From NCBI RefSeq assembly GCF_056746865.1, contig NZ_CM163382.1: DNA of 64,000 nt; one strand, given 5' to 3'. Position numbers and translations under genes: made by a program. The notes under the pieces were generated by a model. The model was given only the letters and a program-made list of their open reading frames with translations. It was not told where the DNA came from and made no database searches. Positions 53,814-53,842 of this stretch are shown in pieces; the first letter of the stretch is position 1; every line of letters starts with the position of its first letter.

Positions 53814-53842
53814 ATAGTGTCCATTACAATGATGGACACTAT
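53814..53842. repeat. Perfect 11-bp inverted repeat with 7-bp spacer downstream of the LRR gene
   Basis: ATAGTGTCCAT-TACAATG-ATGGACACTAT. Confidence 0.6.

Follow-up and report, generated by a model that had tools for sequence, protein, structure and literature searches.

An inverted repeat between dadX and a leucine-rich repeat gene of Escherichia coli: a probable leader palindrome from an IS66-family end, now decayed

The window, that is, the whole 64-kb stretch of DNA analyzed in this study, is from Escherichia coli and contains dadA-dadX, an intergenic spacer, a gene for a leucine-rich repeat (LRR) protein and cvrA-ldcA in this order. Positions 53814-53842 in the spacer read ATAGTGTCCAT-TACAATG-ATGGACACTAT, two 11-nt arms with 100% complementarity and a loop of 7 nt. 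Where does this palindrome come from, and does it serve either of the genes that flank it? The first-pass annotation had described it as a perfect 11-bp inverted repeat about 35 bp from the LRR stop codon and lacking a U-tract, and had proposed a protein-binding palindrome or an insertion-boundary signature. The description is correct: the sequence is as given, the arms are fully complementary, the distance measured from the stop codon (53878-53876, minus strand) is 33 nt, and no U-tract is present on either strand, the plus-strand tail being TTTCCCC and the minus-strand tail CATGGGAAAT.

The palindrome is not a chance repeat. The window holds five inverted repeats with perfect arms of 11 nt or more around a loop of 3-12 nt, and the expectation from 40 first-order Markov simulations of the 64-kb sequence is 0.05 (simulation maximum, 1). 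Such repeats are thus about 100 times commoner than by chance. Features of the locus are collected in Table 1.

Table 1. Coordinates of features around the palindrome in the window
Feature	Position	Strand	Basis or remark
dadX, catabolic alanine racemase, conserved upstream neighbor	52638..53708	+	RefSeq annotation of identical sequence
REP-like hairpin after the dadX stop codon; 8-bp arms AGCCGGAT/ATCCGGCT, 36 nt apart	53718..53769	+	K-12 plus-strand RNA 3' ends 10 nt past it (53779)
Probable IS66-family left-end relic	53805..53892	-	profile HMM, BLAST and alignments
Parts of the relic: tip GTAAGCG; 50-nt leader; palindrome; vestigial tnpA start ATG	53892-53886 (tip); 53812-53810 (ATG)	-
Palindrome	arms 53814-53824 and 53832-53842; loop 53825-53831	none	perfect arms in the window
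Loop-center target, 3 bp duplicated (CAA in MS1050, the haplotype of the window)	53827..53829	none	junctions read
LRR-protein ORF, 478 aa	53876..55312	-	last five codons and stop (53892-53876) encoded by the IS66 terminal repeat

Homology with IS66-family left ends

A profile HMM for nhmmer was made from 11 genuine IS66 left ends, with every dadX-locus sequence excluded. It matched the minus strand of the window at 53894-53804 with an E-value of 2.5e-13 (45.6 bits), and the runner-up in the window had an E-value of 1.3. When 53790-53905 (minus strand) was compared with plasmid sequences by BLAST, an IS66-like element on Pantoea stewartii pDSJ07 was found with 78.9% identity over 88 nt (E = 1e-11), and the match overlaps the annotated tnpA start of that element. 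Plasmid records matching this query numbered 1,180, and 27 of the 40 matches listed lay on the annotated tnpA start of an IS66-like element. A model of the terminal repeat only, made from 14 IS66 terminal repeats, placed its top match in the window exactly at 53892, a match that is weak alone (E = 0.21) but falls within that of the full left-end profile.

The layout of the sequence agrees with these matches. The minus-strand sequence 53892-53863, GTAAGCGTTTTATGTAGAACGCCTGTGCGG, starts with GTAAGCG and has the ...CCGTCTG... block, as IS66 terminal repeats do. From the GTAAGCG tip to the first base of the palindrome there are 50 nt in the window and in IS66 elements alike, and the last 27 nt of this leader are nearly identical to those of the P. 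stewartii element. The palindrome stands at the fixed distance from the tip and just upstream of the tnpA start position, as in IS66 left ends, in which the arms are of the type ATA(G/A)TGTCCAT ... ATGGACACTAT and an ATG or GTG start codon follows 3-4 nt past the palindrome; in the window the vestigial ATG is 1 nt past it. Left ends of IS66-family elements of Enterobacterales (the ISEc8 and ISCro1 families, annotated 'IS66-like element accessory protein TnpA') resemble this sequence in the GTAAGCG tip, the 50-nt leader, the ATAGTGTCCAT/ATGGACACTAT arms in register and the position of the start codon directly after them. The closest left end retrieved is that of the element on plasmid pDSJ07 of P. 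stewartii DC283.

Unlike intact IS66 elements, the sequence in the window extends over only about 88 nt, with 70-79% identity to the nearest elements retrieved, and its loop has 7 nt instead of 8-9. Homology ends at about 53805 and no tnpA, tnpB or tnpC follows. No right end was found at 53709-53812 by BLAST or nhmmer, and an 8-bp target duplication is lacking, since the octamers on the two sides, AACTTGTT and GTTTCATT, are different. Because transposase genes, right end and 8-bp duplication are all absent, the sequence is a relic and not an element. A mini-IS66 with both ends, in which GTAAGC at 53715 would be the right end, was also considered and was supported by neither BLAST nor the terminal-repeat HMM. 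A search for the IS end in viral contigs gave 0 matches.

From these comparisons of sequence, we infer with a probability of roughly 0.85 that the palindrome stems from an IS66-family left end, now solo and decayed, in which it was the subterminal leader palindrome. Everything beyond the palindrome, namely tnpA, tnpB, tnpC and the right end, would have been lost, leaving a relic that abuts the LRR gene. On this reading it is left over from a mobile element and did not arise in the LRR island for regulation. IS remnants are commonplace and this class of finding is already known. In the K-12 record NC_000913.3, however, only 'IS1414 (partial)' is listed nearby, and the dadX-cvrA spacer holds an IS66 end fragment that has no annotation.

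The relic also bears on the LRR gene. The LRR frame runs 16 nt into the IS66 terminal repeat, where it reads ...K-R-K-R-F-M-stop. Since the frame stops inside the terminal repeat, the present C-terminus was set by that insertion; this is an effector-like LRR gene with a C-terminus shaped by an IS. The protein is rich in LPxLP-type leucine-rich repeats. Homologues were found only in E. coli and Shigella, with 76-100% amino-acid identity and always between cvrA and dadX, and they carry PF12799 (LRR_4). Their alleles are unusually divergent and range from 437 to 480 aa, the acidic repeats at the C-terminus differing in length. A homologue is called 'Type III effector protein' in one source, and several NEL-type E3 ligases (IpaH-like) are among the most distant relatives (E-values of 2e-37 to 6e-10). 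A scan of genome contigs with the LRR protein gave one E. coli-like contig, which ends before the 3' flank. We also considered that the palindrome moves together with the LRR gene, reaching new loci or other species; this was rejected, as the divergent alleles are all at the same locus.

Distribution and variation of the palindrome in E. coli

Of 5,426 complete E. coli genomes, 4,296 contain a 91-nt segment with the palindrome at its center, at a median of 1 and a maximum of 2 places per genome, and just 834 contain the LRR gene. In K-12 (MG1655 1240055-1240083) and O157:H7, the palindrome is accompanied by a short 3' remnant of the LRR gene, the rest of which was lost through two different deletions; the promoter of the LRR gene was deleted in both as well. 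In about 1,130 genomes of the AZ159 type, the whole spacer is absent and a short REP-like hairpin stands in its place. Comparison with this type puts the edges of the variable segment at 53715 (left) and about 55950 (right), and some 100 bp separate the palindrome from the left edge, on the inner side. The proposal of an insertion-boundary signature is thus right in one sense and wrong in another. The palindrome belongs to the terminal 88 bp or so of an IS66-family end, and it is kept in every LRR-carrying haplotype examined, a conservation on which the first-pass proposal depended. It is not the boundary of an LRR insertion, because it is inside the edge and because K-12 and O157, which lack an LRR gene, retain it; a boundary mark of the LRR insertion was rejected on this ground.

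Several features of the edges and breakpoints were observed in passing. The left edge at 53715 falls exactly on a GTAAGC hexamer, after the dadX stop codon and CTTGTT. GTAAGC is the tip motif of the IS66 terminal repeat, a coincidence for which we have no explanation. The K-12 breakpoint at about 53948 abuts the annotated 'IS1414 (partial)', and the O157 deletion is 53986-55851. In the O157-like strain NCCP 14541, a second IS3-family element (besides that described below) is found at 53992/53993, 7 nt past the O157 breakpoint; its transposase of 1,214 nt is frameshifted, with an annotated AL1L pseudoknot. The IS1414 remnant at the K-12 breakpoint and the IS near the O157 breakpoint suggest that the LRR gene was deleted by IS-mediated events in K-12 and O157.

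Sixteen haplotypes, including LRR alleles down to 76% amino-acid identity, were compared. Variable sites were 1 of 22 in the arms, 4 of 7 in the loop, where a 3-nt deletion was also found, and 26 of 159 in the flanks. Among these 16 haplotypes the deficit in the arms relative to the flanks is not significant (binomial P of about 0.1), and the excess in the loop is modestly significant (P of about 0.02). The plus-strand loop alleles are TACAATG, TAAAAGG, TAAAATG, TAAAAGA and TAAA, with lengths of 4-7 nt. Such a hypervariable loop could be a mutational hot spot of a hairpin loop, or the variation could be the footprints of IS visits. The sole variant in the arms is T/C at 53820, with C in 6 of the 16 haplotypes. 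With C, the minus-strand (LRR-sense) RNA retains a G.U pair and the dadX-sense RNA has a C.A mismatch.

Possible roles of the palindrome at dadX and in intact IS66 elements

RNA of the palindrome is predicted to fold into a stable hairpin in both senses, with -14.3 kcal/mol (z = -3.85) in the LRR sense and -17.6 kcal/mol (z = -6.9) in the dadX sense. The stem is AT-rich, with only four G-C pairs of 11. At dadX, the palindrome is most likely a neutral fossil that still folds and happens to fall within the 3' UTR of the LRR mRNA. Four other readings were weighed against this one.

The hairpin might have been co-opted as an element of the 3' UTR of the LRR mRNA, where it would act as an exonuclease barrier or as part of factor-dependent termination. 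It follows the LRR stop codon closely, the LRR mRNA shares strand and sense with the tnpA leader of the parent IS, the hairpin is predicted to be stable in this sense, and the only common polymorphism of the arms preserves pairing, as G.U, in the LRR sense and not in the dadX sense. However, the structure came ready-made from the IS; the palindrome is kept equally well in K-12 and O157, from which the LRR gene and its promoter have been deleted; a U-tract is lacking; conservation of the arms does not significantly exceed that of the flanks; and natural strains tolerate both the 3-nt loop deletion and IS insertions. We regard co-option as unlikely.

The second reading takes the palindrome as a putative DNA operator, for TnpA of a resident IS66 element acting in trans or for a host regulator. 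In intact elements, across IS66 types, 7-11 of the 11 arm positions can pair, and the commonest E. coli types have 1-3 arm mismatches. At position 4, both arms change together (G-C in the P. stewartii element and A-T in the element L078), as they do at position 5, where T-A becomes A-T in the element L122. The loop has between 6 and about 16 nt. In the 3' arm, a GGA precedes the tnpA start by 10-12 nt, as a weak Shine-Dalgarno sequence would, and the tnpA product is a helix-turn-helix protein (PF01527 and PF13384). In the leaders of two intact IS66 elements, promoter and terminator scans predicted nothing, and a literature search gave nothing on the IS66 leader palindrome. Some elements deviate from the common form: in L088, on an IMG/VR contig, the motif is present as a direct repeat (ATGGACACT twice), and in the L097 group it has two central mismatches (ATAGTGGACAC/GTGGACGCTAT).

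It is most likely that the palindrome in intact IS66 elements has a role, still putative, in control of tnpA expression. Transposase translation of IS10 and IS50 is reduced by fold-back inhibition. With GGA at this distance from the tnpA start, folding of the IS66 leader RNA into a hairpin would hide the likely ribosome-binding site and block binding of the ribosome, as fold-back does in IS10 and IS50. The IS66 leader resembles theirs in having a stem-loop directly upstream of the first gene of the IS, with the 3' arm over the presumed ribosome-binding site. It differs in that both arms are inside the element, and for IS66 the fold-back mechanism is putative; the comparative data fit a hairpin or an operator. 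Alternatively, the two arms may be half-sites for the helix-turn-helix protein TnpA. On the sequence data, the loop range of 6 to about 16 nt favors a hairpin over a rigid dimer site, whereas the arm mismatches and the direct repeat in L088 fit better with recognition by a protein than with an RNA hairpin. In either case, these comparisons flag a conserved, apparently unstudied candidate control element in the tnpA leaders of the IS66 family.

Returning to dadX, the operator reading draws on the position of the palindrome directly upstream of the gene for TnpA in intact elements, on the symmetric changes in both arms, which base pairing and co-evolution with a dimeric protein would explain equally well, on the direct repeat in one element, and on an IS3-family element that clearly recognizes GTGTCCA...TGGACAC (see below). 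Against it, half-sites are 6 to about 16 nt apart in the various elements and 4-7 nt apart at this locus in E. coli, which is unusual for a rigid dimer, and the half-site centers are 18 bp apart, which is long for a classical operator. The promoter scan predicted none at or around the palindrome in the window, and we know of no host-factor motif that matches. An operator at dadX is about as doubtful as co-option by the LRR mRNA. What survives of the protein-binding palindrome proposed at first is a putative operator inherited from the IS, to which TnpA would bind; we found nothing that points to a host transcription factor.

As a terminator or 3'-end stabilizer of the plus-strand dadAX transcript, the palindrome would lie 106 nt past the dadX stop codon, and the plus-strand hairpin of the window allele is the more stable one and is followed by three T residues. 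It shares with REP-type stabilizers and intrinsic terminators a stable stem-loop in a convergent intergenic region soon after a stop codon, and differs from them in being single-copy and AT-rich, without a U-tract or an adjoining K-12 3' end. The terminator scan of the window did not call it, and a permissive Rfam search over 53000-56500 gave no match. In K-12, Term-seq located 3' ends at MG1655 1240019/1240020(+) (Adams et al. 2021, PMC7815308, supplementary file 1), which corresponds to 53779 in the window, 10 nt past the REP-like hairpin and 35 nt before the palindrome. No K-12 3' end is listed just past the palindrome, and a Rho-dependent readthrough region is found further downstream at 1240513 (PMC7815308). 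Since these ends are 10 nt past the REP-like hairpin, they are consistent with a dadAX mRNA end that is trimmed by exonuclease and protected by that hairpin. In addition, the O157 allele breaks a plus-strand pair, and AZ159-type strains lack the whole segment. The four G-C pairs of 11, the tails TTTCCCC and CATGGG and the position of the K-12 3' ends are not those of an intrinsic terminator, which bears out the first-pass judgment on this point. The dadAX terminator reading is largely refuted for K-12 and very improbable overall, and the palindrome drops out as a candidate terminator or island boundary.

Least probable of all is that the palindrome is a member of a dispersed REP/PU/BIME-like repeat family or a chance repeat: an IS3-family element enters its loop as IS1397 enters those of palindromic units (PU) (PMC1525189) and a REP-like hairpin is 45 nt away, but its copy number in the 4,296 genomes led us to reject REP/PU (BIME) membership, it does not resemble the consensus of PU given in the supplement of PMC1525189, and chance is excluded by the simulation and by a profile match that extends 50 nt past the palindrome.

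An IS3-family element in the loop of the palindrome

The only visible present-day activity of the palindrome is as a repeated target of an IS3-family element. This element has 1,420 bp (L014:931-2350), ends in TGAACTGCGCCCC...GGGGCGCAGTTCA and encodes a transposase with programmed frameshift, WP_088538007.1. It is annotated just as 'IS3 family transposase', and a text search of the literature with its end sequence gave nothing relevant. Among the 5,426 E. coli genomes it occurs in 322, at 483 places, about half of which are on plasmids.

Copies with the same transposase split the palindrome in strains MS1050 and IGC_RcoliRes_1.1. The insertion point is the center of the loop, and 3 bp are duplicated, CAA in the TACAATG loop and AAA in the TAAAAGA loop; the duplication was scored where both junctions were readable. 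Junctions at the dadX locus were read in L014, L013, L025/L026 and L031, and point to at least four independent insertions, into the loops TACAATG, TAAAAGA and, twice and in different LRR contexts, TAAAAGG. The two TAAAAGG events are from metagenome contigs. The dadX-locus junction is present in 30 of the 5,426 genomes.

Of the other copies read, most are in a near-identical palindrome just upstream of tnpA in IS66-like elements, with at least eight such leader insertions (L029, L032, L034, L035, L036, L039, L040 and L041). As to the remaining copies, one interrupts a DMT transporter gene at a similar sequence, GGTGTCCAGCG[TGCG]CTGGTGGACAC, one an integrase gene where the left arm alone is present, TGTGTCCAT, and those in L028 and L030 are at sites with no clear palindrome. 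The element shows a preference for the loops of IS66-family tnpA-leader palindromes and of similar sequences with the core GTGTCCA...TGGACAC, with duplications of 3-4 bp and insertion in either orientation.

IS1397 and ISKpn1 insert into the loops of PU, and they share with this element insertion at the loop center, a duplication of 3-4 bp, recurrence at independent sites and either orientation (PMC1525189). By loop insertion, short duplication and recurrence, the palindrome behaves as a target of the IS1397/ISKpn1 type. Unlike those of IS1397 and ISKpn1, this target is not a PU but the IS66 leader palindrome. A chimeric query for the IS1397 site of CFT073, used in one orientation, gave no full-length match.

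We tentatively suggest, at slightly less than even odds, that the tnpA-leader palindrome of IS66 is the dedicated site of the 1,420-bp IS3-family element, which by its insertion would presumably disable an element of another IS family, and that the fossil at dadX is a decoy. If this is true, it would add a new class of target to the paradigm of IS1397 and PU, with a palindrome recognized in vivo as a structure or as a motif, and the hypervariable loop and the 3-nt deletion at dadX could partly be footprints of visits. An IS that targets the leader hairpin of another IS family is the most interesting lead of this study, although a side finding. The fragment at dadX is a natural hot spot for the IS3-family element, and offers a compact, well-defined substrate of 29 bp for studying palindromic target choice.

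Two other repeats in the window were observed. A further exact copy of an 11-mer of the palindrome, without a partner arm, is found at 31637-31647 inside the pdeG (ycgG) pseudogene, where 14 nt (31634-31647, TAATGGACACTATC) are identical to the right arm and its flank; this is probably a chance match, though only about 5e-4 such matches are expected. The longest perfect palindrome of the window is at 27858-27895, ATACTTTGTACAAT-N10-ATTGTACAAAGTAT, with 14-bp arms. A copy of IS5 and a truncated ycgZ lie downstream of it, and it looks like a putative operator of the ycgZ-ymgA-ariR region.
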